A stretch of 64,000 nucleotides of DNA from a virus: the IMG/VR virus record IMGVR_UViG_3300045988_086557, one strand, 5' to 3'. Position numbers and translations under genes: made by a program. The notes below the pieces were generated by a model that was not told the origin of the DNA, ran no database searches, and saw nothing but the letters and a program-made list of their open reading frames with translations. Each line of letters starts with the position of its first letter. Position 1 is the stretch's first letter. Shown here piece after piece: positions 2,299-60,080 of the stretch.

Positions 2299-2509
2299 AA
2301 AAGTGAGTATCTTACTCTTTTCAAATATATATGAAAGAAAGAGTAGATAAATTATATATAGTTGACCAAGTTCAGTAAAGTGTACTTTTTCTCGGAAATT
2401 GTTAATGACTTTCTAAAAGACTGGAGCGAAGATCGCTTCCATCCTCGACCTTCTATCTAGTAATTTAGATTTGTTTATAGCAATAGCTAGATAGAAGGAG
2501 GTAAACAAT

Positions 2510-4264: not shown

Positions 4265-4345
4265 TACAGCAAAATAACAATTCGGGACAGTTAAGGTTAA
4301 ATTGTCCAATAAAAAAATTATATATTCAAGTGAGGGAAATTTTAA

Positions 4346-4840: not shown

Positions 4841-4870
4841 TATTTTTCTGCGGTTAAATTCTGTATCTTT

Positions 4871-4970
4871 CGGTCCCGTAACTACAACAACTCGAACAAC
4901 GTTTGCAATGTCAACAACGATGGATCTGCGAACAACAACAACTACAACAACAGCAACGGGCTCGCGCCGG
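4871..4970 (+). repeat. DGR template repeat (TR), 100 bp, AAC-codon rich, non-coding
   Basis: cognate of VR; adenine-specific mismatch pattern; followed by structured spacer with hairpins 'GCTGCGGAGCAGC' and 'GTAGCTAccactaTAGCTAC' before the RT gene. Confidence 0.9.
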
Positions 4971-5279
4971 ATTAGATGGAGCTATCATGTTGCGAGTTAA
5001 GCTGCGGAGCAGCGCAAACGAGCAACGCCTAAATAGTACCCCGGAGTATATTATTATCCATCTAATTAAGGTTTACTCTGGATTGCACTCACTATGTGGG
5101 GAAGAGATTGAGAGACCATTAAAGAGCTTTGCTCTACAACTATCGAATAATATACTATAGGTAGATCTGCCTTTTCATCTAAGGAGAACTTAACCATTTC
5201 ACTGAAAAAGTGGATAAAGTAAGACTGTAGACGTGGAGCTCGAGTAGCTACCACTATAGCTACATGATAAGGAGAAAGT

Positions 5280-45984: not shown

Positions 45985-46052
45985 CATATAATAACAAAAA
46001 AAAACTAGATTGTCAAATCTTATTTGATTAATTTATTTAAAAATGCTATAAT
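45985..46052. promoter_or_regulatory. divergent consensus sigma-A promoters (leftward TTGACA-TGnTATTAT; rightward TTGATT-N17-TGcTATAAT)
   Basis: hexamers read directly in the 100-bp AT-rich gap between the oppositely oriented gene blocks. Confidence 0.5.
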
Positions 46053-46088
46053 ATAATTATAAAAATAAGATAGGAGATTTGTTTGCCA

Positions 46089-47771: not shown

Positions 47772-48539
47772 ATGAGACGAGAAGAGCTCAAACAATACGC
47801 GCAATCGCATTACGCAGACATTAAAGTGAGACTCAAGGAAGATACAGATCGCGCAATTATAAACTCTGAAATTTTTGGCCCCAATCTTCCTTTTCCGCAA
47901 AAACCGCGAGAAACCTACCATAATACCTTTTATCTTAAAGATCAAGATAGCGTATCCTGTCTATTCAGTTTAACCGATCGGAGCAAGACTGCGATCTTAA
48001 ATTATGCAAGCTATAAACATCCAGGTGGTTACTTCCTTGGAGGCAGCTCTGCACAAGAAGAGGCATTGTGTCACGAAAGCAACCTTTATCCTATTCTTCT
48101 TGCTTTTGATGATACTTATTACGCATGGAATAGACAGAGACTAAATCGAGCCCTATATCTTGATAGAGCTATCTATACTCCTGATGTAGTCTTTGAAAAA
48201 GACAATGGTAGAAAATTAGCTGATGTAATTACTTGTGCTTCTCCTAATTATAGAACAGCACATACTTATCAGCAAGTTCCTCTTTCTCTAAACAATAGGA
48301 TAATGGAAGAGAGAATTAATTTTATGTATCGGATTGCCGAGGCTAAGGGAGTGGAAAATTTAATCGCGGGAGCCTGGGGCTGTGGTGTTTTTATGCAAGA
48401 TCCATCAACGGTCGCCACCTTGCTCGTAAACGCAGCCCGCAATTATAATATTCCAAATATCTATTTTGCGATTCCAAACCGCAATTCCCGCAATTTTAGA
48501 ATTTTCTTGGAGGTTTTGGAAAAATGTTCAAGCAATTAA
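47772..48539 (+). CDS. macro-domain / bacterial-type PARG-like (TIGR02452/DUF2263-like) ADP-ribose-processing enzyme, 255 aa
   Basis: 'LNYASYKHPGGYFLGGSSAQEEALCHESNLY' and 'GAWGCGVFMQDP' match family signature blocks. Confidence 0.6.
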   Translation: MRREELKQYAQSHYADIKVRLKEDTDRAIINSEIFGPNLPFPQKPRETYHNTFYLKDQDSVSCLFSLTDRSKTAILNYASYKHPGGYFLGGSSAQEEALCHESNLYPILLAFDDTYYAWNRQRLNRALYLDRAIYTPDVVFEKDNGRKLADVITCASPNYRTAHTYQQVPLSLNNRIMEERINFMYRIAEAKGVENLIAGAWGCGVFMQDPSTVATLLVNAARNYNIPNIYFAIPNRNSRNFRIFLEVLEKCSSN

Positions 48540-48961
48540 TTATTGCGAGACGAGACTTAAATATGTCTCCAGGGAAACTTGCCGCACAAGTTTCCCATGC
48601 TTCTATTGCTTTTCTTTTGGAAAAGTTATATTGGGGAAGTAAAGAAGTTGTTAAAGAAAGAGACGGTCTTATGTATCATATAGGAATAAGCCTCGATAGA
48701 GACTTATTCCATAATTGGATAGCGGAAGCGGAGACCAAAGTAGTTTGTAGAGCGAAGAATAAGAATGATTTGTTAAAGGCTGTTAAGATAGCAGAAGAAT
48801 TAGGATGGGAAGAGAATAAGGATTATTGGCTTATCTATGATGCTTGTAGAACAGAGTTAGAACGCGAAGGCCCGGAAGGGACTTTGACGTGTATTGGATT
48901 TAGGCCAATGGAGGCGGAAGAAATTGACAAAATTGGGAAGAAGTATCAGCTTTATAATTAA
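48524..48961 (+). CDS. peptidyl-tRNA hydrolase, PTH2 family (145 aa); overlaps upstream gene by 16 nt
   Basis: 'IIARRDLNMSPGKLAAQVSHASIAF', 'KVVCRAKN', 'YWLIYDACRTELEREGPEGTLTCIGFRP'. Confidence 0.7.
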   Translation: MFKQLIIARRDLNMSPGKLAAQVSHASIAFLLEKLYWGSKEVVKERDGLMYHIGISLDRDLFHNWIAEAETKVVCRAKNKNDLLKAVKIAEELGWEENKDYWLIYDACRTELEREGPEGTLTCIGFRPMEAEEIDKIGKKYQLYN

Positions 48962-49287: not shown

Positions 49288-49320
49288 GGAGAGAAGAAGT
49301 GAGTTCTTCTCTCTTTTTCG
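49288..49320 (+). terminator. intrinsic terminator
   Basis: 'GAGAAGAAgtgagTTCTTCTC' + TCTTTTT. Confidence 0.5.
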
Positions 49321-49516
49321 TTATTGAGATTGAAAAGTTGATTTAGATTTTGAAATGGCGTGGCAGAACGATTTCACCAAAAAATTTCCAGTTTTTCCCA
49401 AAATACACGCCCCTCTTTCACATGGTAAAGTATTGAAGTGTAGTTGGCCTCTTTCGCTCGCTAAAGTACGAAAGCAAGAAAGCACGCCCCTAAAGGAATA
49501 CGCGCGCGTAAAGGGT

Positions 49517-49533
49517 TTGTGCAAACTGCACAA
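49517..49533. promoter_or_regulatory. perfect palindromic operator 'TTGTGCAaacTGCACAA' in an ORF-free GC-richer 220-bp region
   Basis: same TTGTGCAA half-site recurs in inverted pairs before 5 other early promoters. Confidence 0.5.
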
Positions 49534-49587
49534 CAAGATGTTATTTATTTTGTGCAAAAGAGAGAGAAAGAAATTTCAAAAAAACTA

Positions 49588-49712
49588 TTGACAAGTGAGC
49601 GTTTTGGTGGTAAACTGGACTTGTCCAGTAGGACAGAGACAAAAGCACAGCACTTTGAAAATTAAAAAATTTCAAAAAAGGTATTGACAAACTGCTAAAG
49701 GTTTGATACAAT
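49588..49712 (+). promoter_or_regulatory. two tandem consensus promoters (TTGACA-N17-TAAACT; TTGACA-N17-TACAAT)
   Basis: hexamers with TGn extended -10; the segment between them resembles the one in the 57.4-57.6 kb promoter array. Confidence 0.55.
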
Positions 49713-49765
49713 ACAGACAGAACAAAAGAGAATCACACCACAAAAAGAAAGGGAGTCAAAAGAGT

Positions 49766-50140
49766 ATGAAAAAGATTGATTTTACCAATGAAGATCGAGC
49801 CATTATTATGGAGTATATGGCGGCTAAGATGGCTAAGTCTGCGGCGGAGGCGGCGGAGAAAGCAGCTAAGGCTAAGGCTAAAGAGCTATTCTCCAGATTA
49901 GGTAAGGCTTTTAAGGCTACGGACAAAACAAGTTATCTATATGGCACGGTACAAATGCAGGGTAAGGCGAAAGCGGTGGTATATAAAGAAACTACCGCAA
50001 AAGGAACGGTTGACTGGAAAGCCTATGCTATGGCATTAGGTGGAACGGAAGCCGAAGCAGAGCAATTCCGCAGACCTTCCGATATTCGTACCTCTTTTGA
50101 TTGGGCGACAAAGACCCAAGAAGAAGAAATTAGAGGATAA
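49766..50140 (+). CDS. hypothetical Ala/Lys-rich protein (124 aa)
   Basis: AAAGGGAG RBS; ends TAA; followed by 14-bp perfect hairpin 50150..50185. Confidence 0.45.
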   Translation: MKKIDFTNEDRAIIMEYMAAKMAKSAAEAAEKAAKAKAKELFSRLGKAFKATDKTSYLYGTVQMQGKAKAVVYKETTAKGTVDWKAYAMALGGTEAEAEQFRRPSDIRTSFDWATKTQEEEIRG

Positions 50141-50407
50141 CAGTTTATAAACCCTGCCTTGCAAAACACAAGGCAAGGCAGGGTTATAATAATTAAAAGA
50201 AAGGGGTATACTATATGTATCAATTACAGGTTTTAGCCAATGAGAAAATGCGCTATTATGAACCATCCACCCTTTCAATGGCAAGATGGAAAGCCAGTCA
50301 CGAGATAGTCAATCCCAATCATTGGATTGTAGATTTATCCAGTGGAGAAATCGTAGATTAAAAAGAAGCTGACCTAACGGCTATACGGGGAGAAAGGATA
50401 AAAGACT

Positions 50408-50710
50408 ATGAACAATTATATTAAGTGGTTCGTTGGGCCTACTTTTAGAAAGCATGAATTTATTAAACTTTTGCGGTATAAGATGAATGTGCGTTCCGCA
50501 GAGGTAGAGGACGGCATCATCTTAGACCTGGATGCTTTTAATGCCATGCGAGTGGCCTATATGCCACACTGGGCTTATATCAATAGAAAGTTTATCAATA
50601 GCAATCTGCATACCAGAATTGCAAGCGAAGATGAATATAAGATTGCTATGGTTGGAGATACAATCGGTACTGAATGGGTTAAAGAACAGGAGGCAAAGAA
50701 ATGGAAATGA
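50408..50710 (+). CDS. hypothetical protein (100 aa)
   Basis: track ORF; ends TGA overlapping next ATG (ATGA). Confidence 0.45.
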   Translation: MNNYIKWFVGPTFRKHEFIKLLRYKMNVRSAEVEDGIILDLDAFNAMRVAYMPHWAYINRKFINSNLHTRIASEDEYKIAMVGDTIGTEWVKEQEAKKWK

Positions 50711-50853
50711 GAATTATTAAGCGGATAGGAGGCGGCATTTGTGCCGCTCTCCTACTCTGGACAGTTCTTAGTTGGGCTGATATAGTGGCGGATAACTGTG
50801 AGCCAAACCCACAGCACAGCGAATATAATATGTTCGTTCTCATGACTAAATAA
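50707..50853 (+). CDS. small membrane peptide (48 aa), translationally coupled
   Basis: 'GGGICAALLLWTVLSWA' hydrophobic core. Confidence 0.35.
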   Translation: MRIIKRIGGGICAALLLWTVLSWADIVADNCEPNPQHSEYNMFVLMTK

Positions 50854-50865
50854 TAGGAGGAAAAA

Positions 50866-51099
50866 ATGTATAGAGGGACTTATATCGACGCCATGGGCCG
50901 CAAGCGCAGAGAGATGGGATATTTCAGTCTTAATAAGCCCACTCTGAATAAACTCCATATACCAGTAATTGTCCAAGCGAGAGATAAGACAAGTGCGGCG
51001 AATAAAATCAATAGGAAATATAAATTGCGTATAAGTCCCAGCAATCTGCGGGAGGTGCCGATGGGCACGGGCTATCTCATGGAAACCATGGAGCTGTAA
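50866..51099 (+). CDS. hypothetical basic protein (77 aa)
   Basis: GGAGG RBS; track ORF. Confidence 0.4.
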   Translation: MYRGTYIDAMGRKRREMGYFSLNKPTLNKLHIPVIVQARDKTSAANKINRKYKLRISPSNLREVPMGTGYLMETMEL

Positions 51100-51112
51100 A
51101 GGAATAATACTT

Positions 51113-51216
51113 GACTGGCAATCTACACAAAGATTGCCAGTCATTTTTATGCACTTTTCCATATTGACTTTTCGCCGGGCCGCCAGCGTGCGCCGCGGCC
51201 CGAATTTTTATTTATT
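51113..51216 (+). terminator. cassette boundary module A: intrinsic terminator + GC-rich 'CGGGCCGc..gCGGCCCG' hairpin/T-tract
   Basis: 'GACTGGCAATC..GATTGCCAGTC'+ATTTTTAT; then 'CGCCGGGCCGCCAGCGTGCGCCGCGGCCCG'+AATTTTTATTT. Confidence 0.65.
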
Positions 51217-51246
51217 CGGCAATTTCAACAATTATATGACCGAAAG

Positions 51247-51313
51247 TTTGTGCAATTCGACGAAAGTTTTTCTCCCGAAATTACTTGACATTCCTTTTCC
51301 CATGTGTTATTAT
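51247..51313 (+). promoter_or_regulatory. module A operator half-site TTGTGCAAT + promoter TTGACA-N17-TATTAT (TGT extended)
   Basis: read directly. Confidence 0.6.
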
Positions 51314-51366
51314 ATACTTGTCCAAAGGGACAGGTCACAAAAAGAATTTGAAAGGAAGTAAAAAAA

Positions 51367-51606
51367 ATGACTTTAGATATGGTTGCTTGGTTACTTTCTC
51401 CGCTTGCAGAAGATACTATGTTCTTTGACGGGGAGGGATTCGAAATTATCAATAAGAATACCCAAGCTCATTACCATGAATTACCTGATGGTAGAATAAC
51501 TCTGGGAGGAGACGTAATCGAGGTATCTAAGGAATGGGTTCTGGGACTTCAGGTAACCGGCATTGAGGCAAGAGATAACAATTTAATCATTTATGTAGAT
51601 GGTTAA
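51367..51606 (+). CDS. hypothetical protein (79 aa)
   Basis: GAAAGGAAG RBS; track ORF. Confidence 0.45.
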   Translation: MTLDMVAWLLSPLAEDTMFFDGEGFEIINKNTQAHYHELPDGRITLGGDVIEVSKEWVLGLQVTGIEARDNNLIIYVDG

Positions 51607-51668
51607 GAAAACTTGCGGGAGTGGAGGCCACAAACCTCTACTCCCCACGATAAAAAGGAGGAATAAAT

Positions 51669-51884
51669 ATGATTGCTGTTATTAAATTTGAAAGTGCAGA
51701 AAAGTCTGTGGAGTTTGGAAACACAATTTGTAATATGGCTGGCTGGTGTTTGGGTCATCCTCTCAATTCCAATGTTACCGGCTGTGTTTGTACACTTGAT
51801 TTTAATACCGGCGACAAGCAAGATAGAGCCTTATATAATTATCTGCTAAAAATTGGAGCTTTCGAGGAGGTGGAACTAAAGTGA
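51669..51884 (+). CDS. hypothetical Cys-containing protein (71 aa)
   Basis: AAAGGAGG RBS; track ORF. Confidence 0.45.
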   Translation: MIAVIKFESAEKSVEFGNTICNMAGWCLGHPLNSNVTGCVCTLDFNTGDKQDRALYNYLLKIGAFEEVELK

Positions 51885-52085
51885 GTATTGAGCGTTTACC
51901 GCATACATATCCTATCGGTTCCACTGTTTGGACAAATAAGGGATATGGCACAGTTCTACTTCACATTGGTAAATACCATCTGGTTTGGCTACAGAGATTA
52001 GGGCTGGCGTAATGCCGGCCCTATTGATTTTTTCAAAAAAATATATTATAATAATTATAGAAAAATAAAGAAAGGAGTTTTTCTA

Positions 52086-52202
52086 ATGACCTTAGAAGTG
52101 CTGAAAGCACTCGCGGTTATTTTGGAGTTCTGTTTGAACTAGGATTCTTGCAAGAATTGTCCTATGTCTCAGTTCTGCCAGAAAATGCCTTGCGAGTGGT
52201 AA
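52086..52202 (+). CDS. small Cys-rich peptide (about 38 aa) with one in-frame TAG
   Basis: 'MTLEVLKALAVILEFCLN.DSCKNCPMSQFCQKMPCEW'. Confidence 0.3.
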
Positions 52203-52294
52203 ATGTTCCTTCCGATTGTTCTAAATCGGCGATTCCCGTGATGGAGTCGTTTTTCGCACGAGCCTAGGTCACTAGAATTTATTTATCAAAATGC

Positions 52295-52525
52295 AAGAAA
52301 CTACTTTCTCTCGCAAATTGGATTCAAGTGGTAGAATTATGATTCCGATTCGTTTGCGTGAACAAATGGGACTTACTTCCGGTTAGGAATACTATTTCAC
52401 TACTATGGTAAAAGATGGCAGAAAATACATCTGCATTGACTGCGGATCGGTTGATTCCTCACTTGAAGAAGCTATGAAAATTATCCAAGCAAACGGATTA
52501 AAGATTGTTGAAAATGCCGATTGAC
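52295..52525 (+). CDS. AbrB-family (swapped-hairpin) transition-state-regulator-like protein, about 76 aa, with one in-frame TAG at codon 32
   Basis: 'RKLDSSGRIMIPIRLREQMGLTSG[TAG]EYYF' aligns with AbrB 'RKVDELGRVVIPIELRRTLGIAEKDALEIYV'; start codon/RBS weak. Confidence 0.5.
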
Positions 52526-52564
52526 TTCTCAAAAGAAAGGGAGTTGTTGGTATGCAGAAATTAA

Positions 52565-52643
52565 TGACCTCCTGAAATTCAGGAGGTTCTTTTTTTATTC
52601 GTTCGCCCGGCCGTGCACCACAGGCGCGGCCGGAATTTTTTAT
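52565..52643 (+). terminator. cassette boundary module B: intrinsic terminator + GC-rich hairpin/T-tract
   Basis: 'ACCTCCTGaaatTCAGGAGGT'+TCTTTTTTT; 'GCCCGGCCGTGCACCACAGGCGCGGCCGG'+AATTTTTT. Confidence 0.65.
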
Positions 52644-52650
52644 CAAGAGG

Positions 52651-52743
52651 CAATTTGCACAATTTTAGGCTCGAATTGTTGTGCAATCTGATGGAAGATT
52701 TTTTCCCAAAATCGCTTGACTTTCTATCTGTTATCTGTTATAC
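52651..52743 (+). promoter_or_regulatory. module B inverted-repeat operator TTGCACAA-N16-TTGTGCAA + promoter TTGACT-N17-TATACT
   Basis: read directly. Confidence 0.6.
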
Positions 52744-52797
52744 TTGTATCATCAAGAGGGGAGAACAAAAGCCCTCGAAACAAAAGGAGAATGAGTT

Positions 52798-53031
52798 ATG
52801 TATCTGGTAATGGCTGACAGTAGAGAAAAGATTATCGGCGTTTCTGATACTGAAACTGGCGCACGCCATGCGGGATGGGACTGGCTCAAGGCCCAGTATT
52901 CCGAAAGCGAGTGGAGCCAAATTCTGGAAGATATGGACTATGAGAATGAAGGGGACTTGCGGCATGACCTTCTCATGGGCGCATATTGGGAAGATTTCGA
53001 TATGGAGATTATCGAGGTTAAGAGGGTATAA
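52798..53031 (+). CDS. hypothetical acidic protein (77 aa)
   Basis: AAAGGAGAATG RBS; track ORF. Confidence 0.45.
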   Translation: MYLVMADSREKIIGVSDTETGARHAGWDWLKAQYSESEWSQILEDMDYENEGDLRHDLLMGAYWEDFDMEIIEVKRV

Positions 53032-53060
53032 ACCCTCTTAACCAGAAAAGGAGTATATAT

Positions 53061-53213
53061 ATGACTACCTTCACAATGATTGTTTTGATTGCGTTTGTGG
53101 CCTGCCTTGCATGGCAGTTAATGGCGGCTGCTCAAAAGAGCTGTATTCGGCTTGAAATCATGTTTGCCGCAGAAATTCTAATGTTCGCATATTTGGCAAA
53201 AAATTTGATGTAA
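53061..53213 (+). CDS. small membrane protein (50 aa)
   Basis: AAAAGGAG RBS; single TM 'MIVLIAFVACLAWQLMAAA'. Confidence 0.4.
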   Translation: MTTFTMIVLIAFVACLAWQLMAAAQKSCIRLEIMFAAEILMFAYLAKNLM

Positions 53214-53217
53214 AGGG

Positions 53218-53246
53218 TTGACAAACCGCTTAAACAGTGGTATAAT
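53218..53246 (+). promoter_or_regulatory. consensus promoter TTGACA-N17-TATAAT (TGg extended)
   Basis: read directly. Confidence 0.6.
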
Positions 53247-53297
53247 CAATAATGTAAAGAGAAGGAAAACTCATTAAACCAGAAAGGAAATATTGCT

Positions 53298-53528
53298 ATG
53301 TATAGAATGACTGAGCAGGATAGACAGGGGATTATTCTTCTGCATAAGACCATGGAGGAGTTCTGCCCAGGAGAAGCAGCACAGGCAATGCTCCAGTCTT
53401 TGGGAAAATTCCTGCGGATCGGCATGTGTACTCCCGATGACGCGGCCGATATTATCAAGGGTATTTTCGATGAGGAAGCCGATAAGACAGTTGATGAAAT
53501 GACTATGATGGATTTACTTTCCTTGTAA
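53298..53528 (+). CDS. hypothetical protein (76 aa)
   Basis: GAAAGGAAA RBS; track ORF. Confidence 0.45.
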   Translation: MYRMTEQDRQGIILLHKTMEEFCPGEAAQAMLQSLGKFLRIGMCTPDDAADIIKGIFDEEADKTVDEMTMMDLLSL

Positions 53529-53536
53529 AAAAGGGG

Positions 53537-53565
53537 TTGACAAACTGCCCCTTCTGTGGTACAAT
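53537..53565 (+). promoter_or_regulatory. consensus promoter TTGACA-N17-TACAAT
   Basis: read directly. Confidence 0.55.
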
Positions 53566-53623
53566 AAGACTATGGAAGGGGCAGCCCCAAAAATAAATTA
53601 AAATAAGAAAGGGAGTTTTAGAA

Positions 53624-54022
53624 ATGCGTGTTACTAAGAGGATTGAAGCCTATATCAATGATGAGGTCAACAAGATTGCGAACGCCAAGCGAGAGGAAAT
53701 CAGAGCCAAGTATGCGGACGCTATGAAAGAGTTTGAGGATTTCATCGAGGAAGGCCGAAAAGAGATTGAGGCGCTGAATACAAGGATTATTGAGCGCGCC
53801 ACAGCGAAGGGATATAAGCTCCGCCGCTATTATGACCAGGAGTGTGCCAAGTCAAATATGTGCAGTCTTTACAACCCCATCAACCAAACGATGGATGAAG
53901 AGCTGTCCACTGTGACAAAGTGGGTAGAGGAAAATGCAAGTCTGATCTGCGTCAAGCTGGAAATGGGCGGCGACATGAAAACTCTGTCTACTCTGCTGGA
54001 CGAACTGCGGAAATCGCTTTAA
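53624..54022 (+). CDS. hypothetical coiled-coil protein (132 aa)
   Basis: AAGGGAG RBS; followed by 8-bp GC hairpin 54031..54067. Confidence 0.45.
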   Translation: MRVTKRIEAYINDEVNKIANAKREEIRAKYADAMKEFEDFIEEGRKEIEALNTRIIERATAKGYKLRRYYDQECAKSNMCSLYNPINQTMDEELSTVTKWVEENASLICVKLEMGGDMKTLSTLLDELRKSL

Positions 54023-54076
54023 GGAAAGGAGGCGCGGGAGTATAGGACTTGTATTCTATGCTCCCGCGATAAAAAA

Positions 54077-54535
54077 ATGAGAGCTGTTGGTATTGTTCGA
54101 CATATTGATGACCTAGGGCGTATTGTTATTCCTAGAGAAATTCGTAGGAGTATGCGAATTAGAGAAGGCGACCCTATGGAAATTTTTCTTGATGGCGACT
54201 GTATAGCCTTCAAGAAATATTCTCCACTATCTTTTTTCGTTGACCATGCCCACGAAATGCGAAATGCCCTTTCTGTTAATCACATTTCCGCGGCGATCTT
54301 CGATTCAGATAAACTTTTAAGCGGGCCTAGTTCTTTCAAAATTTCTATACCACCAGATGAATGGAGTAATATCAGCCAACCTGCGACAGCGTGGAAATCT
54401 ATGTTTATTACTCCCATTTTTTCTGATGGGGGACAAATTGGATTCATTTGTTACAAAAATCTGCACAATGATGAATCTATTCACGAAATGGTTAAATTAG
54501 TCGCAAGGTATTTTTCAAATATGGCTGAAAGATAA
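54077..54535 (+). CDS. SpoVT-like regulator: AbrB-type N-terminal DNA-binding domain + truncated GAF-like C-terminal domain (152 aa)
   Basis: 'GIVRHIDDLGRIVIPREIRRSMRIREGDPMEIFLDGDCIAFKKYSP' is near-identical in pattern to B. subtilis SpoVT 'GIVRRIDDLGRVVIPKEIRRTLRIREGDPLEIFVDRDGEVILKKYSP'. Confidence 0.75.
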   Translation: MRAVGIVRHIDDLGRIVIPREIRRSMRIREGDPMEIFLDGDCIAFKKYSPLSFFVDHAHEMRNALSVNHISAAIFDSDKLLSGPSSFKISIPPDEWSNISQPATAWKSMFITPIFSDGGQIGFICYKNLHNDESIHEMVKLVARYFSNMAER

Positions 54536-54619
54536 AAGAAGGGCTTCGGCCCTTCTTTTTTATACACTAAAAATTCGACGGCGCGCTGACGCACGCGGCG
54601 CGCCGAGTTTTCTTATTTG
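54535..54619 (+). terminator. cassette boundary module C: intrinsic terminator + GC-rich hairpin/T-tract
   Basis: 'GAAGGGCttcgGCCCTTC'+TTTTTTAT; 'CGACGGCGCGCTGACGCACGCGGCGCGCCG'+AGTTTTCTTATTT. Confidence 0.65.
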
Positions 54620-54648
54620 TAAGTTCTACACAATTTTTGTCTTGAAAT

Positions 54649-54695
54649 CTTGTGCAATTCGCCATCTTGCAATTATCCTTAAATTATGGTATTAT
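54649..54695 (+). promoter_or_regulatory. module C operator TTGTGCAAT(tcgccatc)TTGCAAT + promoter TTGCAA-N17-TATTAT (TGg extended)
   Basis: read directly. Confidence 0.55.
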
Positions 54696-54722
54696 TAGTA
54701 CAGAAAAAAGGAGGGGTACTAA

Positions 54723-54971
54723 ATGAAACCTTCAAAGTTTATTCAGCCCAATGAATACTTAACCGTGGCTGAAATTTATCGTAGACAATTCGGGCATACT
54801 ACTACCCCGGTTAATTATGAGGTTTATATACGAACTGTGCTTTTACAAGACCCTCTGATCTATATAGATTGTATGTCAATGCCTTATAAGGTATATCGGC
54901 GTAAAACTTTTTTTGAAAAACTTGTTGACAAGGTGTGCAATAAATGGTATAATAAAACAAAAGGAGATTGA
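54723..54971 (+). CDS. hypothetical protein (82 aa); its 3' end contains the promoter of the next gene
   Basis: AAGGAGGGG RBS; internal TTGACA-N17-TATAAT at 54925..54953. Confidence 0.4.
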   Translation: MKPSKFIQPNEYLTVAEIYRRQFGHTTTPVNYEVYIRTVLLQDPLIYIDCMSMPYKVYRRKTFFEKLVDKVCNKWYNKTKGD

Positions 54972-54977
54972 TATACA

Positions 54978-55439
54978 ATGACTAAAAAAATGCTCTGCTT
55001 TGACATGGATGGAACTATCGCGGACTTGTATGCAGTCCCTAATTGGCTCGAAAAACTCCGCAATGGAGACCCTACCCCATTCCGAGACGCGGCCCCTATG
55101 TGGGACATGGAAGCCCTCCGAAATGCGCTTCTAAAGGCAATCAATAACGGATGGGAAATTAGAGTAATTACATGGCTACCACCTGAAAGCACTCCCGAAT
55201 ATAAGAAAGCAGTCACAGCCGCAAAAAAGGAATGGCTTGCAAGGTATAAATTTCCGGCCCATAAATGTCATTGTGTGGCATACGGAACGACCAAAGCCAA
55301 ATGTGTATTCCGTAGTTTCTATGAACCGCCGTTTATCCTTTTTGATGATAATGATAAAATTAGGTACGGTTGGCATTTAGGAGATACAATAAATCCAGGA
55401 GAGACAGACATAATCGAATATATCAACAATTTGGACTGA
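54978..55439 (+). CDS. HAD-superfamily 5'(3')-deoxyribonucleotidase-like protein (153 aa)
   Basis: motif I 'LCFDMDGTIADL', downstream 'FILFDDNDK'; overall NT5C-like layout. Confidence 0.55.
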   Translation: MTKKMLCFDMDGTIADLYAVPNWLEKLRNGDPTPFRDAAPMWDMEALRNALLKAINNGWEIRVITWLPPESTPEYKKAVTAAKKEWLARYKFPAHKCHCVAYGTTKAKCVFRSFYEPPFILFDDNDKIRYGWHLGDTINPGETDIIEYINNLD

Positions 55440-55441
55440 AT

Positions 55442-55466
55442 GGGGCGGGGTGAAAATCCCCGCCCC
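55442..55466. repeat. hairpin 'GGGGCGGGGtgaaaatCCCCGCCCC', copy 1 of 2 (second at 58085..58107)
   Basis: identical 23-nt core at both sites, each immediately after a gene stop. Confidence 0.5.
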
Positions 55467-55488
55467 ACAAAGAAAGGGAGTTTTGTCA

Positions 55489-55683
55489 ATGCAAATTAAG
55501 AAAGTTAATAGGCTCATTTTTGATTCAACGGAAAAACAAACATTGAGAAATGCTTCAATTCTCATAAGCCAGATTAGCCGGAGCATGGAAGAGAATGAAA
55601 TTGATGATGATTTTCCTGTCTCTCTTGATGATCTGGTATATGGGATAGATGAACTAATCAATAGGGAATATATTGGATATTAA
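55489..55683 (+). CDS. hypothetical acidic protein (64 aa)
   Basis: AAAGGGAG RBS. Confidence 0.4.
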   Translation: MQIKKVNRLIFDSTEKQTLRNASILISQISRSMEENEIDDDFPVSLDDLVYGIDELINREYIGY

Positions 55684-55688
55684 AAATA

Positions 55689-55773
55689 CCCCTCTCATTA
55701 TTGAGAGGGGTATTTTTTTATTGTCGTTTGGGCGGCCCGCGCTTGGGCGGTGCGGGCCGAATTTTTTTCTTTG
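55689..55773 (+). terminator. cassette boundary module D: intrinsic terminator + GC-rich hairpin/T-tract
   Basis: 'CCCCTCTCattattGAGAGGGG'+TATTTTTTTA; 'GGCGGCCCGCGCTTGGGCGGTGCGGGCCG'+AATTTTTTTCTTT. Confidence 0.65.
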
Positions 55774-55778
55774 TAGAT

Positions 55779-55849
55779 GTTGCACAATTTTGGCGGCGAA
55801 AAGTTGTGCAATTTGCCATCTTGCAATTCTCCCAAAAGTATGGTATTAT
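55779..55849 (+). promoter_or_regulatory. module D inverted-repeat operator TTGCACAA-N19-TTGTGCAA + promoter TTGCAA-N17-TATTAT
   Basis: read directly. Confidence 0.6.
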
Positions 55850-55980
55850 TATCATGTCAGGAGGGAGAGGCCAAGAAATCAAGAGGTCGCGAACTCTTAG
55901 AAAGTAAAGGAAGCAAAGTATACGGCTAAATTTCAATTAGCTACTGAAAGGATTAAGCCAAAAAAACTTTCCTTTTCCTC
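55850..55980 (+). ncRNA. candidate small non-coding transcript (about 130 nt) between the module D promoter and a second promoter
   Basis: consensus promoter upstream, no ORF longer than 17 codons, no RBS; second promoter TTGACA-N17-TATAAT at 55981..56009 serves the exonuclease gene. Confidence 0.25.
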
Positions 55981-56043
55981 TTGACACCAAGCCTTAAATG
56001 TGCTATAATAATACCATCAAGAGAAGAAAGGACTTGATAGATT

Positions 56044-56868
56044 ATGATTGATAAGCGCAGACATTATGTGCTGGTGGTTGACACTGAAACCGCCAACACA
56101 CTAACCGAAACCGTTCCCGCTGAAATCGGAGAGGATGGGGAGATTATTACTCCTGAGCGTGTCCGCATGGATATGTCAAATGTACTGGTATATGACTGCG
56201 GTTGGGCTGTAGTAGATACCAAGGGCAATATTTACGAAACTGCAAGTTTTGTAAATCGGGACATTTTCAATGACGAGCGAGACTTAATGCGGACGGCCTA
56301 TTATAATTGGAAAATCCCCCGCTATGTTGAGGAATTGCGGGCCGGCACTCGCAAGATGGCTACTACTTATGAAATCCGTCAGGCTATGCTTGATACTATC
56401 GAGCGATACGGAATTAAGGAAGTGGCTGCTTATAATGCCCGGTTTGACGATAACGCTCTGCGGGTCACTCAACGATGGGTCACTTGCTCTAAGTTTCGCT
56501 ACTGGTTCCCGTTTGACAGTGTGGAAATTTGGGATATTATGAAGATGACACAAGATGTTATCTGCAATATGCCCACTTATAAGAAATTCTGTCAGGAAAA
56601 TGGATATATCCAAGCCAATGGCGTTCCCCGTAAGACTGCGGAAATCGTGTGGCGGTTTATCTCTGGAAATACCGATTTTGAGGAAAGTCATACGGGGCTT
56701 GAAGATGTTCTCATTGAGGCGGAAATCATGTGGTACTGTATGCGCCAACATAAGCCCATGAGAAAGGCCCTGTATGAGAATAGGAAGGAATTTCCTCCTA
56801 TGACAGACTTTCAGCGTCAGCTTTCCGCAAGTATGCGGAATGTACCTACTATTCGAGTCGGGGCTTAA
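56044..56868 (+). CDS. DnaQ-like DEDDh 3'-5' exonuclease (274 aa)
   Basis: Exo I 'VVDTETA', Exo II 'AAYNARFDDNAL', Exo III 'SHTGLEDVLIEAEI'. Confidence 0.65.
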   Translation: MIDKRRHYVLVVDTETANTLTETVPAEIGEDGEIITPERVRMDMSNVLVYDCGWAVVDTKGNIYETASFVNRDIFNDERDLMRTAYYNWKIPRYVEELRAGTRKMATTYEIRQAMLDTIERYGIKEVAAYNARFDDNALRVTQRWVTCSKFRYWFPFDSVEIWDIMKMTQDVICNMPTYKKFCQENGYIQANGVPRKTAEIVWRFISGNTDFEESHTGLEDVLIEAEIMWYCMRQHKPMRKALYENRKEFPPMTDFQRQLSASMRNVPTIRVGA

Positions 56869-56911
56869 CGCCCCGCTCCATAAAAAATATCTGAAAAGTA
56901 TGTAAAAAACC

Positions 56912-56940
56912 TTGACAGCTTCACCGAATTGTGGTATAAT
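56912..56940 (+). promoter_or_regulatory. consensus promoter TTGACA-N17-TATAAT (TGg extended)
   Basis: read directly. Confidence 0.6.
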
Positions 56941-56987
56941 TTAATCATCAAGAGGGAATAACCCTCATAAAAGAAAGGGAGTTTTGT

Positions 56988-57138
56988 TATGATGAATTTC
57001 TATTTTAAGACTGCGGCAGGCCATGTGTTTGCGGGTGTCGGCAAGGATGTTGACCGTGCCCGTTCTGATGCTAAGCGCAAGGCCGGTTCTCTTTGGTCGC
57101 CTTCGGCCAAGTGCTTCAAAATCGGGAACGCTATTTAA
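56988..57138 (+). CDS. small basic protein (50 aa)
   Basis: AAAGGGAG RBS. Confidence 0.4.
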
Positions 57139-57153
57139 GACGTTTCCGACTAA

Positions 57154-57232
57154 AAGAGGGGTTTTACCCCTCTTTTTTTTATACAAAATTGAGCGGGTCG
57201 CGCAGGAGCGGCGCGACCCGAGTTTTTCTTTG
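57154..57232 (+). terminator. cassette boundary module E: intrinsic terminator + GC-rich hairpin/T-tract
   Basis: 'AGAGGGGttttaCCCCTCT'+TTTTTTTTA; 'CGGGTCGCGCAGGAGCGGCGCGACCCG'+AGTTTTTCTTT. Confidence 0.65.
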
Positions 57233-57236
57233 TAAA

Positions 57237-57624
57237 TGTTGCACAAAAATTTCAACCCCGTTTTGTGTAAAATTCTGCACAAAAACTTTCTCCCAAAATT
57301 CCGATTTTTGTGCAATTTGACGCTTGCAATCTGCTTTTGCTTGTGGTAAAATACATTCAGAAAGTGAGAGAGACGAACGGCAGACAGCGACAGCGAATTT
57401 CTCAAAAATCTTTCAAGAATCTCTTGACAAGCCTTTGAAGATGTGCTATAATAAGTACAGAAAACAAGGCAATGCACCTTGAAAATTAAATAAAAAGGGC
57501 TTGACAAACTTTCCAAAGTGTGTTACACTATAAGGGAGGTTGAGAGGGCAAACAAGTAAAGAGCAAAAGTTCTTGAAAAAAGTTTGAAAAACCTCTTGAC
57601 AAGTACCAAATAGTGTGGTACAAT
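57237..57624 (+). promoter_or_regulatory. module E: operator pairs (TTGCACAA...TTGTGTAA, TCTGCACAA...TTGTGCAAT) followed by four tandem consensus promoters (-35 at 57324, 57425, 57501, 57596)
   Basis: four TTG(A/C)CA-N17-TAnAnT hexamer pairs, each with TGn extended -10, within 300 bp upstream of the gene at 57673. Confidence 0.6.
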
Positions 57625-57672
57625 ATAATCAAAGGACAAGGACAGTCCTAAAAACCAGAAAGGATGTATATT

Positions 57673-58074
57673 ATGGACGAGAAGAAAATCCGCATTACTA
57701 AGGCCCAGCGTTTTGAGGACATTAAGGCCCTCTTGACTGACGGCGAGGTAAAGTATGGCACTACCATCGAGGTGGCTATTACTGTCATTGACCATGAGCT
57801 GGAGCTTCTGCGTAAGAAGAATAGCTCTAGCGGTGACAAGAAGCTGACTCCCACCCAGCAGGAGAACGAGAATTTTAAGGAGCAGATTATGGAGTATCTG
57901 GCTGGTCTGGATGCCGATACCGATGGCGTAACCTGCACGGAAATTTTCAAGGCTATTCCTGATCTGACGGCCTATTCTAACCAGAAGGTCGCCGCCCTTG
58001 TGCGGCAGTTGAAACTCGATGGTCGAGTGGTCTGCACGGAGAAGAAGGGCAAGTCCCTCTTTAAGATGGCGTAA
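57673..58074 (+). CDS. putative winged-helix DNA-binding regulator (133 aa)
   Basis: C-terminal 'GVTCTEIFKAIPDLTAYSNQKVAALVRQLKLDGRVVCTEKKGKSLF' wHTH-like; AAAGGA RBS; heavily promoted. Confidence 0.4.
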   Translation: MDEKKIRITKAQRFEDIKALLTDGEVKYGTTIEVAITVIDHELELLRKKNSSSGDKKLTPTQQENENFKEQIMEYLAGLDADTDGVTCTEIFKAIPDLTAYSNQKVAALVRQLKLDGRVVCTEKKGKSLFKMA

Positions 58075-58212
58075 CCCCGTATAGGGCGGGGTGAAAATCC
58101 CCGCCCTAACTTATAATATGGGGGTGATATTATATCCAGTCGCATTAGTGACGCTGAACGGATTGCAAGGTATAAAGCCCTACAATTAACGCCGGAACAG
58201 GAGGCGGAGTTA

Positions 58213-58530
58213 TTGGCCTATGATAAAGCGGTAGAGGCTGATAAAAAGACTGAATACGATTTACCGCCAGATAAGGCAAAAATTGCCCAAAAGTTTGCCC
58301 ATGCGGGGACGAGAAAGGCTCCAACGGCATATAAGTTTACGCCCCGGCAACGCAAGCCAAACGCCACGAAAGGCGGTATAATCGCGGAATTGGCAGAGTT
58401 TTTGGAAAAAAACAGTCAATTCTCTATCGCTGACTTGTCTATTACTAACAAAGAAAGGCAGATTGCGTTTTCTATTGGTGGGGATAGTTTCGAGTTGACG
58501 CTTGTGCAAAAGCGTAAGCCGAAGAAATAA
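58213..58530 (+). CDS. hypothetical basic protein (about 105 aa; TTG start in track)
   Basis: track ORF; followed by GC hairpin 'GGGGTAGGgtcggCCTACCCC'. Confidence 0.35.
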   Translation: MAYDKAVEADKKTEYDLPPDKAKIAQKFAHAGTRKAPTAYKFTPRQRKPNATKGGIIAELAEFLEKNSQFSIADLSITNKERQIAFSIGGDSFELTLVQKRKPKK

Positions 58531-58586
58531 CGGGGTAGGGTCGGCCTACCCCGGCCCTACCAGAAAAGAGGCAAGTTATAGTTAGT

Positions 58587-58937
58587 TTGCAGACAAGGAG
58601 AAAAGAGTTCCTATATGTCGGACATTATATCGACAAAAAGGGGCGCTATATTCTCAAGATTGGTACGACAAATGACCTTGAACGCAGAGCCGCAGAGCAT
58701 ACGAGAAATTATAAGCGGGCGCCAGATTACACCATGCCGGAAGATGGTTCCTTTATCTATGATTGGCATATCAAACTTTCCAAGTATAATACCCTACGAT
58801 ACGAGGATGTAAACCGGACTTTGTGGCAGAATATGGGAATTGGTCGTTTTATCAGAAATGACCGTTTCTTGTGCGACACTCCCCCGGCCATGGTTACGGT
58901 GGTTATTCGCAAGGCATATCCAATAATTCTCAACTAA
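58587..58937 (+). CDS. GIY-YIG / T5orf172-like nuclease-domain protein (116 aa)
   Basis: 'FLYVGHYIDKKGRYILKIGTTNDLERRAAEH' matches the GIY...YIG..T.N...RR..EH pattern; preferred over overlapping 65-aa ORF 58615..58812. Confidence 0.5.
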   Translation: MQTRRKEFLYVGHYIDKKGRYILKIGTTNDLERRAAEHTRNYKRAPDYTMPEDGSFIYDWHIKLSKYNTLRYEDVNRTLWQNMGIGRFIRNDRFLCDTPPAMVTVVIRKAYPIILN

Positions 58938-58942
58938 AGAAA

Positions 58943-59023
58943 AATCTCCCCTTATGGGGAGATTTTTTTTATGCAAAATTTTGAGCGGACCGCTTGCGTG
59001 CGCCGCGGTCCGAATTTTTCTTC
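58943..59023 (+). terminator. cassette boundary module F: intrinsic terminator + GC-rich hairpin/T-tract
   Basis: 'ATCTCCCCttatGGGGAGAT'+TTTTTTTTAT; 'GCGGACCGCTTGCGTGCGCCGCGGTCCG'+AATTTTTCTTC. Confidence 0.65.
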
Positions 59024-59055
59024 TATTGTCATTTTCAACAATTTTGAATTGAAAA

Positions 59056-59102
59056 TTTGTGCAACTTGACAGCTTGACTTTCTCCCGAAAATGTGGTATC
59101 AT
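59056..59102 (+). promoter_or_regulatory. module F operator half-site TTTGTGCAAC + promoter TTGACT-N17-TATCAT (TGg extended)
   Basis: read directly. Confidence 0.55.
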
Positions 59103-59129
59103 TTAACCATGGAAGGGAGGTAAAAGAAA

Positions 59130-59270
59130 TGATGAATAAACTTAAAAACTCTATCATTCGTTTCTTAATTAAAAGAACTTGCCTTGACATTTCCACTATT
59201 TATTCGGTATTAGGACAAAGTACAGAAAAAGAAATGAAATTTTATATTAAAGATTATTACAGGAGATAAA
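59130..59270 (+). CDS. small protein (46 aa)
   Basis: GGAAGGGAGG RBS. Confidence 0.4.
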
Positions 59271-59274
59271 AGAA

Positions 59275-59727
59275 ATGGAAAGCTTAAAACAATTTCGTGT
59301 TAATTTTCAAGTTACCTTTTGGTGTGAAGGTCGCAAGGGTATCTTCTCTAAGAAGCCTTATAAATTTACGGTATCATTTCGTGATGATATTATGCTTTCT
59401 ACCTTTTTAATCAATGCTCGAACCGAAAAAGAAGCGGTTAAAACTGGAAAAAACTATGTTGAAAATATAGTTCAATGTTGGGTTGAACAGTCAGAAGAAA
59501 ATCAAGCCACCGGCGAATATATGATTTTAACTGGAAATATGGCTGATACAAAAAGATTTGAGTGGTCGCCTAAAATCTACGCCATTACTGGGTATGAAAT
59601 TAAATTTATTTCCTGCGAAATGGTTTGCGACTGGGCAAAAGAAAGGGTTGAGAGAGCGGCAAGAGAACTGACTATGGAGCAATTTAAGCAAGTTTTTAGT
59701 GAAATTCCGGCTGAGATTTTTCATTAA
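59275..59727 (+). CDS. hypothetical protein (150 aa)
   Basis: AGGAGA RBS; track ORF. Confidence 0.5.
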   Translation: MESLKQFRVNFQVTFWCEGRKGIFSKKPYKFTVSFRDDIMLSTFLINARTEKEAVKTGKNYVENIVQCWVEQSEENQATGEYMILTGNMADTKRFEWSPKIYAITGYEIKFISCEMVCDWAKERVERAARELTMEQFKQVFSEIPAEIFH

Positions 59728-59744
59728 AGAAAGGAGATTTTTAG

Positions 59745-59996
59745 ATGGTTGATATTGATTTCGACAAACTGAATGATGAGGAGTTGCAATGGTTGAGTGC
59801 TACCGCCTATAAAGAAGTGGCACTTAGAAAACAAAAAGCGCAAGAGAAAGATTGGAATAGTCTAATCGAAAAGATAGACGAGTATTGTAAAAAGTATGGA
59901 GAAATAACTATCGTTGGATATGGAGATGAATTTGTTTTTGAATCTCCGATACGGTGTAACTGTATAGGAGAAATCAATTTAGAAAACGAGGATTAA
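59745..59996 (+). CDS. hypothetical acidic protein (83 aa)
   Basis: AAAGGAGA RBS; track ORF. Confidence 0.5.
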   Translation: MVDIDFDKLNDEELQWLSATAYKEVALRKQKAQEKDWNSLIEKIDEYCKKYGEITIVGYGDEFVFESPIRCNCIGEINLENED

Positions 59997-60000
59997 GAAA

Positions 60001-60080
60001 AGAGAGGCTTTGGCCTCTCTTTTTATTTTATATTTCCTAAACTCGACGGGCCGGTCGCGGGCGACTCGGCCCGAGTTTTC
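60001..60080 (+). terminator. cassette boundary module G: intrinsic terminator + GC-rich hairpin (no promoter follows)
   Basis: 'AGAGAGGCtttgGCCTCTCT'+TTTTATTTT; 'CGACGGGCCGGTCGCGGGCGACTCGGCCCG'+AGTTTTCC. Confidence 0.6.

Follow-up and report, generated by a model that had tools for sequence, protein, structure and literature searches.

A 64-kb stretch of DNA from an uncultured gut phage (IMG/VR virus record IMGVR_UViG_3300045988_086557; 64,000 nucleotides out of a genome of about 100–160 kb, hereafter the window) carries, in an early region read from the + strand, repeated inverted copies of the 8-mer TTGTGCAA and its reverse form TTGCACAA. An earlier sequence-only reading had described these sites as a family of operators, and the observation itself is confirmed here. 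The sites, which we call boxes, are built into repeated modules between a hairpin and a promoter, and we infer that they are the protein-recognition part of terminator–promoter cassettes. The same dyad was found at chromosomal promoters of Firmicutes, and sequence comparisons point to a factor that is most likely encoded by the host rather than by the phage. In our preferred account this host factor would recruit or activate RNA polymerase from boxes centred near −48.5 and −72.5, to which we give a rough probability of 0.5.

An exact 8-mer is enriched in the early region

Counted on either strand, TTGTGCAA occurs 13 times in the window compared to 2.04 ± 1.44 times in dinucleotide shuffles, none of which reached 13 (0/100), and 12 of the 13 copies fall within 49517–59064. 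It also came first among all 8-mers of 49301–60100 (12 observed, 1.09 expected under an order-3 Markov model, z = 10.4), in a ranking that presupposed no motif. By both counts, the motif behind the sequence-only reading is over-represented.

The enrichment is specific to the exact word. Exact TTGTGCAA was enriched about 8-fold over some 60 loci of related phages and 8.4-fold in 44 dereplicated sources, while nearly all of its single-base variants stood at 0.3–1.5-fold. Only position 8 tolerated a change (to T or G), and substitution at any of positions 1–7, including G3, G5 and C6, abolished the enrichment. Literature searches for the 8-mer returned primers and unrelated matches only.

The boxes belong to terminator–promoter cassettes

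Alignment and repeat finding revealed a module of ~125 nt that is present on the + strand of the early region in six full copies, with a seventh copy consisting of the hairpin only. Its parts follow a fixed order: a GC-rich hairpin, A(A/G)TTTTT, a distal TTGCACAA (or a degenerate form of it), ~16 nt, a proximal TTGTGCAA and a promoter. The copies and the remaining boxes are listed below; the gap is the distance from the box to the −35 hexamer in nucleotides, and the promoters are predicted.

49517..49533, no strand assigned: tight palindrome TTGTGCAAaCTGCACAA, composed of TTGTGCAA-a-CTGCACAA (+N1−, 7+7)
49550..49616, + strand: box 49550–49557, gap 30, promoter TTGACA-17-TGgTAAACT (49588–49616)
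51176..51313, + strand: module 1, hairpin 51176–51202, degenerate distal box TTCAACAA 51224–51231, proximal box 51248–51255, TTCTCCCGAAA at 51271, promoter TTGACA/TATTAT 51285–51313, gap 29
52607..52744, + strand: module 2, hairpin 52607–52633, dyad TTGCACAA-N16-TTGTGCAA 52655–52686 (boxes 52655/52679), TTTTCCCAAAA at 52702, promoter TTGACT/TATACT 52716–52744, gap 29
54579..54695, + strand: module 3, hairpin 54579–54605, degenerate distal box CTACACAA 54626–54633, proximal box 54650–54657, promoter TTGCAA-17-TGgTATTAT 54667–54695, gap 9
55733..55849, + strand: module 4, hairpin 55733–55759, dyad TTGCACAA-N16-TTGTGCAA 55780–55811 (boxes 55780/55804), promoter TTGCAA-17-TGgTATTAT 55821–55849 with TTCTCCCAAAA in its spacer, gap 9
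57194..57352, + strand: module 5, hairpin 57194–57220, four boxes over 57239–57315, two of them exact, 57239 (−) and 57308 (+), and two with one mismatch, 57263 (+) TTGTGTAA and 57275 (−) CTGCACAA; TTCTCCCAAAA at 57289, promoter TTGCAA-17-TGgTAAAAT 57324–57352, gap 8
58502..58509, + strand: exact box within the 3' end of gene 58213–58530, retained at this position in relatives, probably through constraint on the coding sequence
58986..59102, + strand: module 6, hairpin 58986–59012, degenerate distal box TTCAACAA 59034–59041, proximal box 59057–59064, promoter TTGACT-17-TGgTATCAT 59074–59102, gap 9
60048..60072, + strand: seventh hairpin copy without TTGTGCAA boxes, followed by CATARCGCAA repeats and TTTTCCCAAAAT

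All seven hairpins have a ΔG of −18 to −23 kcal/mol and are followed by a T-run, and the hairpins of the modules were also flagged by a terminator scan. Compensatory changes, with both sides altered, were found in 5 of the 9 base pairs. The module promoters (at 51285, 52716, 54667, 55821, 57324 and 59074) combine a −35 hexamer, a 17-nt spacer and an extended −10, as predicted for σA-type promoters.

All sites given in the sequence-only reading are present, including the palindrome at 49517 and the four boxes at 57239–57315, and its figure of at least six early promoters is borne out by seven predicted promoters in the window with an exact box ≤45 nt upstream. Its placing of the sites between a terminator and a promoter also stands: a hairpin and T-run precede the boxes in each module, an arrangement conserved in relatives. 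The spacers, put at 16–19 bp, are exactly 16 nt in both dyads (52655/52679 and 55780/55804). Half-sites had been described as lying immediately upstream of the −35 hexamers, and this is so at 54650 and 59057 (gap 9) but not at 51248 (gap 29). These three single exact boxes (51248, 54650, 59057) each have a distal box with two mismatches 15–16 nt upstream.

A second motif, TTYTCCCRAAA, accompanies the modules. It occurs at 49394, 51271, 52702, 55828, 57289, 59081 and 60143, at a constant distance of 14–15 nt downstream of the proximal box. At 55828 and 59081 this places it inside the promoter spacer; at 51271 and 52702, where the promoter is shifted by ~20 bp, it lies ahead of the promoter. It is restricted to close relatives. 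In four relatives (L129 at 9692, L141 at 3110, L145 at 7570 and L127 at 13094) boxes flank the GC-rich hairpin on both sides, since an extra TTGTGCAA box precedes it, between the two tandem terminators.

Boxes are helically phased with the promoter

In the window, the gap from box to −35 takes one of two values: 8–9 nt at 54650, 55804, 57308 and 59057, and 29–30 nt at 49550, 51248 and 52679. In module 4, with its 17-nt promoter spacer, the boxes centre near −72.5 (distal) and −48.5 (proximal).

The same distances recur in relatives, whose geometry was taken from 324 non-redundant contexts (<80% identity). Of 127 non-redundant promoters, 76 had TTGTGCAA at a gap of 8 or 9 nt from a strong −35; smaller peaks were seen at 18–19 and 29–30 nt, and distal TTGCACAA lay 32–33 or 42–43 nt from the −35. 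Pairs in the order TTGCACAA…TTGTGCAA were spaced by N16 (40 cases), N15 (8) or N26 (12), and pairs in the order TTGTGCAA…TTGCACAA by N1 (8) or N4 (3). Information content was close to zero in the flanks and high at the boxes, including the distal box exactly N16 away, on which the alignment had not been conditioned; it was also high in the extension aAAnTT-TTGTGCAA-tTTGaC. A 17-bp palindrome, TTGTGCAAnTTGCACAA, with a degenerate half for each box, was considered and set aside, as its outer halves hold almost no information bar the TTG after the proximal box.

Exact-word enrichment combined with such quantised geometry is what characterizes a base-specific protein-binding site presented on a fixed helical face relative to RNA polymerase, as far as sequence can tell. 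The sequence-only reading had proposed that position relative to the −35 be used to distinguish an activator from a repressor. The position of the boxes upstream of the −35 and their helical phasing with it suggest recruitment or activation rather than classical operator occlusion.

Two classes of early promoter can be distinguished in the window. The four box promoters with a gap of 8–9 nt all have non-consensus hexamers (−35 TTGCAA in three and TTGACT in one; −10 TATTAT, TAAAAT or TATCAT). In contrast, the nine box-less promoters all have a perfect TTGACA, mostly with TATAAT and with an A/T-rich tract upstream. A perfect −35 is thus found in 0/4 of the former and 9/9 of the latter, within the window only. 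Three of the box-less promoters stand in tandem before gene 57673:

57424..57624, + strand: box-less consensus promoters in tandem at 57424, 57501 and 57596, all three having perfect TTGACA and, upstream of it, an A/T-rich tract

Together with the box promoter of module 5 they form a series of four promoters over 57324–57672, spaced ~80–95 nt apart with no convincing open reading frame (ORF) between them, and the same tandem arrangement recurs in distant relatives (L035, L109 and L009).

The cassettes are conserved and recombine among related phages

The nearest annotated relatives are the gut phage 'Phage Phass-1' (phAss-1) of the 'code 15 clade', whose major capsid protein is 52% identical, and three Enterococcus phages of ~140 kb (EF1, H1 and VRE9). 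SPβ-like phages are more remote (major capsid ~26% identical). The hosts of phAss-1 are predicted to be Clostridia/Eubacteriales, and the words promoter, repeat and early are not used in its description (PMC10607447). The host of the phage studied here is probably a member of Clostridia. A megablast comparison of the early region with GenBank phages gave no match.

Close relatives were fetched by the protein encoded at 56044–56868 alone (73–98% identity). Their loci of 12–21 kb contain 4–15 boxes each, mostly 8–15, compared to 0.4–0.8 expected. In a single distant locus, reached through the same protein at 36% identity, boxes were not above chance. A pattern scan of viral contigs found further phages with 20, 19 and 13 boxes in 9–14 kb; in these motif-rich phages the flanks are unrelated and the early genes are shared at 28–47% identity. 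Phass-1 shows the same enrichment and layout (9 boxes, 0.5 expected).

Even relatives that are 89–98% identical differ piecemeal in the early genes they carry. Homology with relative L124 stops at 52685, which is the last base but one of the proximal box of module 2. The block 59017–60047, comprising three genes, is missing in L121–L123, and both of its breakpoints lie within hairpin copies (module 6 and the seventh). On these alignments, the cassettes double as recombination points at which small blocks of early genes appear to be shuffled among relatives.

The phage uses TAG as a sense codon

When TAG is opened as a sense codon, the number of ORFs of at least 200 aa rises from 11 to 35, and they tile the − strand over 7.6–46 kb (7640–46032). 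One ORF has 101 internal TAGs, and the capsid-like gene 36952–38004 has none. TGA or TAA recoding was rejected, as opening either codon brings no gain in ORFs. The phage thus reads TAG as sense. A tRNA scan of the window found no tRNA, suppressor tRNA included, and an Rfam scan at gathering thresholds gave no matches in it.

The + strand block at 46–60 kb differs from the other parts of the window in GC content (0.38–0.44 compared to ~0.32). σA-type promoters and terminators are crowded in this block, and its genes use the standard code. The exceptions are two small genes, 52086–52202 and the AbrB-like 52292–52520; both contain in-frame TAG and sit behind an AT-rich promoter type. The early-region proteins include a poly(ADP-ribose) glycohydrolase (PARG), the peptidyl-tRNA hydrolase PTH2, a HAD-type nucleotidase, a full-length SpoVT homologue and many ORFans.

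The same dyad lies at host chromosomal promoters

One genome per bacterial species (596 Gb) was scanned with the pattern TTGCACAA-N15/16-TTGTGCAA-N-TTG, which has 19 specified bases. At least 120 matches were obtained, against roughly 10–20 by chance as a rough estimate. Among the matches listed, about 100 are from Firmicutes, mostly Clostridia, and the groups listed are mostly Oscillospiraceae, Acutalibacteraceae, Ruminococcus, Eubacteriales and Lachnospiraceae. Some matches are phage contigs binned into metagenome-assembled genomes, and many are lone dyads in ordinary chromosomal contexts.

These chromosomal dyads have the same N16 spacing and the same 8-nt gap as the phage sites, with no phage genes nearby. 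A σA promoter lies ≤45 nt from the host dyad in 41% of cases compared to 7.6% at random positions. The gap to the −35 peaks at 8 and 6 nt, with smaller groups at 18–19 and 28–30 nt, while the random control is flat.

The dyad precedes genes for MalK/MsmX-type ATPases of ATP-binding cassette (ABC) transporters in Exiguobacterium, Sporosarcina and Sutcliffiella horikoshii (a complete chromosome included), and likewise in Lachnospiraceae, Christensenellaceae and Eubacteriales. At these msmX-type sites the boxes are identical across genera and the spacer sequences are unrelated. Other genes behind host dyads encode sugar solute-binding proteins, a CBM9 surface protein, ECF sigma factors, small RHH proteins, TypA and a LacI-type regulator. 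A conserved host ORF of ~43 aa has the promoter TTGTGCAA-N6-TTGACA-N16-TATAAT with three to five boxes; its neighbours vary among genomes (McsA/McsB, RarA and MazF among them), and it matched no family in Pfam, PHROGs, NCBIfam or PDB sequence searches. This ORF (…LxxEIxxxKxFSFKKLxKIxELxxL…) was seen in the Clostridia contigs L156, L159, L164, L175, L216 and L223, and also in L231, L232, L233, L252, L253 and L257.

In six Bacillales loci and one from Christensenellaceae (L255), an HTH_30 (PucR-type) gene lies directly upstream of the dyad and msmX. The yxkF–msmX operon of B. subtilis has a matching arrangement (PMC8849057), and PucR-family proteins are mostly activators that bind inverted repeats of 17–24 bp upstream of promoters (PMC7652997). 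No PucR-type gene was found near the other Clostridia dyads, in the phage loci or in the window. A YxkF-like regulator of the PucR type is therefore only a lead, for the msmX sites; as a general explanation it was set aside because it is found beside these sites only.

Candidate readers encoded by the phage

Two early-region proteins come into question as phage-encoded readers of the boxes:

57673..58074, + strand: 133-aa protein modelled with an N-terminal helical hairpin and a C-terminal winged helix, candidate DNA-binding protein
54077..54535, + strand: full-length SpoVT homologue (AbrB-type N-domain plus SpoVT_C), second candidate

The first had been named a winged helix-turn-helix (wHTH) protein in the sequence-only reading, an assignment that structure prediction supports. 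Its AlphaFold2 model (predicted local distance difference test, pLDDT, 87.4) places helices at 60–77, 88–100 and 103–115 and strands at 119–132, as a predicted three-helix bundle with a β-hairpin wing. Foldseek matched the model to the wHTH domains of PerR/Fur, ArsR, MarR, BlaI and TubR, with root-mean-square deviations of 2–3 Å over ~68 residues and a probability of ~1.0, although the E values were weak (~1e-2). Neither this protein nor its neighbour 58213–58530 matched a family in Pfam, PHROGs, NCBIfam or PDB sequence searches. The 57673 family has 191 members in 5.8 billion proteins, almost only metagenomic and mostly on phage-sized contigs, and no homologue was found near the host dyads.

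Gene 57673–58074 is present in all of the 26 motif-positive relatives. So is 58213–58530, with an identical association with box-rich loci, and the co-occurrence therefore mirrors membership of the phage family. The attempt to find the binder by co-occurrence failed for this reason, as its candidates are core genes of the family. The sequence-only reading had also taken the dense box cluster before 57673 as a sign of autoregulation. This is not upheld in distant homologues, which have no box within 650 nt upstream and tandem box-less consensus promoters in that place instead.

Aligned along its entire length, the SpoVT homologue shares ~35–40% identity with clostridial SpoVT. It is absent from 10 motif-rich relatives, which weakens the SpoVT/AbrB-like proteins as the alternative candidates that the sequence-only reading had put forward.

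Comparison with known systems

PeSLs (promoter-early stem-loops) of T4-type phages join a stem-loop terminator to a σ70 early promoter; they flank ORFans, and indels arise by recombination from one copy to another (PMC2839356, PMC4122927). The cassettes resemble them in joining a GC-rich stem-loop terminator directly to a strong early promoter for host σ (both predicted here) in one repeated element, and in the many copies among small genes of unassigned function, the variable gene content and the indels that start or end within the elements. They differ in the part ahead of the −35, which is a generic AT-rich tract in PeSLs and here consists of two specific boxes with required G/C positions; the fixed dyad occurs at host promoters too, and A/T-rich tracts belong to the box-less promoter class. 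The lineage differs as well, being related to phAss-1 and, distantly, to SPβ, with Firmicutes as the host phylum. The concept behind PeSLs, in which accessory early genes are shuffled by mobile regulatory cassettes, would be extended by this cassette from T4-type phages of Gram-negative bacteria to large phages of Firmicutes. For uncultured phages it also gives a practical means of annotating early transcription units and strong, portable promoters and terminators.

SPBRE of SPβ is a 15-bp motif at ~10 promoters, within a non-palindromic operator of 24–26 bp that is bound as a monomer by the recombinase-fold repressor MrpR (YopR/SroF), whose peaks in ChAP-seq all lie within the prophage (PMC10516654; bioRxiv 10.1101/2025.11.27.690993). 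In both cases a short element is repeated at many promoters of distantly related phages, and SPBRE is read by one regulator. The boxes are set apart from the described SPBRE architecture by their form, 8-bp quasi-palindromes in N16, N26 or N1 dyads, and by their presence in host chromosomes (Clostridia and Bacillales).

Binding sites of class I/II activators share several features with the boxes: the dyad lies upstream of or abuts the −35, is helically phased and accompanies weaker core hexamers in the window, and its position is fixed in phages (gaps of 8–9, 18–19 and 29–30 nt) and in hosts (8, 18–19 and 28–30 nt). Described sites of the PucR family are a 17-bp inverted repeat for PutR, one of 24 bp for AdeR and two of 21 bp for GabR (PMC7652997). 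Unlike a simple 17-bp palindrome, the N16 half-sites here point outward. An UP element, the site of the α-subunit C-terminal domain (α-CTD) of RNA polymerase, is A/T-rich with no need for G or C, and this did not fit the specific requirement for G3, G5 and C6.

Do the boxes correspond to a known host global regulator? A cre site for CcpA was rejected, there being no match to TGWAANCGNTNWCA in the window or in Phass-1. Rex (TTGTGAA-N4-TTCACAA), CRP/FNR (TGTGA-N6-TCACA), the Spo0A box (TGTCGAA), AraR (TTGTACGTACAA) and AbrB were also dismissed, as the consensus of each is unlike the dyad in sequence or spacing. The likeness to host global-regulator sites in phages is that early transcription would be tied to host physiology. 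Spo0A boxes in φ29 are one instance of host-regulator sites in a phage early region. Enterococcus phage H1 (OP534061.1, L269) appears to be another. Its TTGTGCAA boxes are not above chance, and its early intergenic regions hold five matches to the cre consensus (4038, 4414, 5882, 7347 and 13415), three of them perfect TGTAAGCGCTTACA, where chance expectation is estimated at <0.1. This suggests CcpA control of H1 early genes, and with it that the lineage does place host global-regulator sites in its early region.

What reads the boxes?

In our preferred account, the GC-rich hairpin and T-run would end the upstream transcription unit, and the σA-type extended −10 promoter would restart transcription. 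A sequence-specific protein would occupy the boxes on a fixed helix face relative to the −35 and aid RNA polymerase in a class I/II-type manner, offsetting the non-consensus −35 and −10 of the box promoters. Being encoded by the host, this factor would let the early promoters fire, or be tuned to host physiology, upon DNA entry. In effect, the phage family would have taken over an element that stands upstream of promoters for carbohydrate uptake and surface proteins in Firmicutes themselves. As the same dyad and geometry occur at host promoters without phage genes, and the 57673 family is small and metagenomic, a host factor is the more economical explanation. Early promoters must, in any event, fire before any phage protein exists.

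Several points weigh against this account. The protein that would bind the boxes is so far a postulate. As the genome scan used a pattern derived from the phage sites, a local PucR-type regulator with the same pattern could account for the Bacillales msmX sites, and the chance figure of that scan is an estimate, not a computed control. Elsewhere in the phage family, most box promoters come close to consensus in the −35 and −10 hexamers, and so may need no activator. Furthermore, the 57673 wHTH protein co-occurs with motif-rich loci (at least six boxes) in 32 of 44 cases, vs 4/70 and 0/67, and it is made from strong box-less promoters, as would fit a phage regulator of the box promoters.

These last two points lead to the explanation put forward in the sequence-only reading, that a single phage-encoded regulator co-ordinates all cassettes. 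The best candidate is the wHTH protein 57673–58074, which would be made immediately, from the three tandem box-less promoters, and would then either activate the box promoters, as a delayed-early class, or silence them at a later stage. We consider this doubtful. Its modelled wHTH fold has an N-terminal helical hairpin that could dimerise, two early promoter classes do exist, the gene always stands behind strong box-less promoters, and MrpR/SroF with the repeated SPBRE sites of SPβ provides a precedent (PMC10516654; bioRxiv 10.1101/2025.11.27.690993). The idea loses ground through the identical dyad and geometry at chromosomal promoters of Clostridia and Bacillales with no 57673 homologue nearby, the small size of the 57673 family, a co-occurrence that is confounded by family membership, and an autoregulation that is not conserved. 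The 8-mer is, moreover, invariant across phages that share proteins at only 28–47% identity. Phage-specific operator/regulator pairs usually diverge faster than this. If the phage wHTH protein does read the boxes, it would represent a new family of early regulators with a specificity that overlaps host promoters, and would imply host takeover at sugar-uptake genes.

An AbrB/SpoVT-type protein might instead bind as a swapped-hairpin dimer at each quasi-palindromic 8-mer (TTG-YR-CAA), with a tetramer bridging two boxes; the binder would be host AbrB/SpoVT, the phage protein 54077–54535 or the TAG-containing AbrB-like 52292–52520. The early region does encode a full-length SpoVT homologue and a second AbrB-fold protein, AbrB-family proteins occur in Bacillales and in Clostridia, and short quasi-palindromes in N1, N16 and N26 arrangements would suit β-sheet readers acting as dimers of dimers. 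Given that 54077–54535 is missing in motif-rich relatives and that AbrB prefers TGGNA pairs with a weak consensus, unlike TTGTGCAA, such a reader is improbable. It is very unlikely that there is no dedicated factor at all, the boxes either riding along in a recombining, PeSL-like cassette or being read by RNA polymerase itself as an UP-like element. The repetition of the whole cassette and the indel breakpoints within it agree with the former, and the positions of the boxes at α-CTD subsites (~−48 and further upstream by ~10-bp steps) with the latter. Against both stand the conservation of the boxes next to flanks that hold no information, and their occurrence in unrelated phage and host contexts. 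Positions 1–7 are all needed, G and C included, unlike in A/T-rich UP elements, and A/T-rich tracts sit at the box-less promoters instead.

Returning to a host-encoded factor, a more specific form of this account is possible, though tentative: TTGCACAA-N16-TTGTGCAA might be the site of an undescribed or uncharacterised (for example YxkF/PucR-like) Firmicutes-wide activator of sugar-ABC-transport energisation (msmX), solute-binding and surface-protein genes, installed by a large clade of TAG-recoded gut phages in mobile cassettes and coupling early, standard-code expression to the carbohydrate status of the host. Such coupling would parallel the cre sites in the Enterococcus-infecting relatives. 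If the boxes are host-factor sites, they would define a new, testable regulon in gut Clostridia, for which almost no transcription factors have been mapped experimentally, and abundant stop-codon-recoded gut phages would wire the first minutes of infection to host physiology.

Other features of the window

The stretch 47772–48961 holds the PARG gene, of microbial type, and the PTH2 gene, whose products could have counter-defence or translation-related roles in a recoded phage. At the other end of the window (2417–6497) lies a diversity-generating retroelement, with a target ORF (2417–4264), a variable repeat (4148–4250) and a template repeat (4871–4973). The two repeats are 83% identical, and the mismatches in their conserved core are all at template adenines. 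A reverse transcriptase follows (5466–6320; phrog_1423, E 2e-61).

The early region closes with a non-coding stretch of ~650 nt (60078–60705) that carries six copies of the palindrome CCGATCGG. Five CATARCGCAA repeats (60090–60160) precede these copies, and there are two 72-nt direct repeats (60264 and 60562). It may function as an origin, in packaging or as a further regulatory site. An AT-rich repeat, AAAAAATATAWTATAATAWWTATA…AAAGGAG, occurs at 46037–46075, 52036–52082 and 60717–60763, each time ahead of TAG-containing or late-side genes, and may represent a distinct middle or late promoter type.

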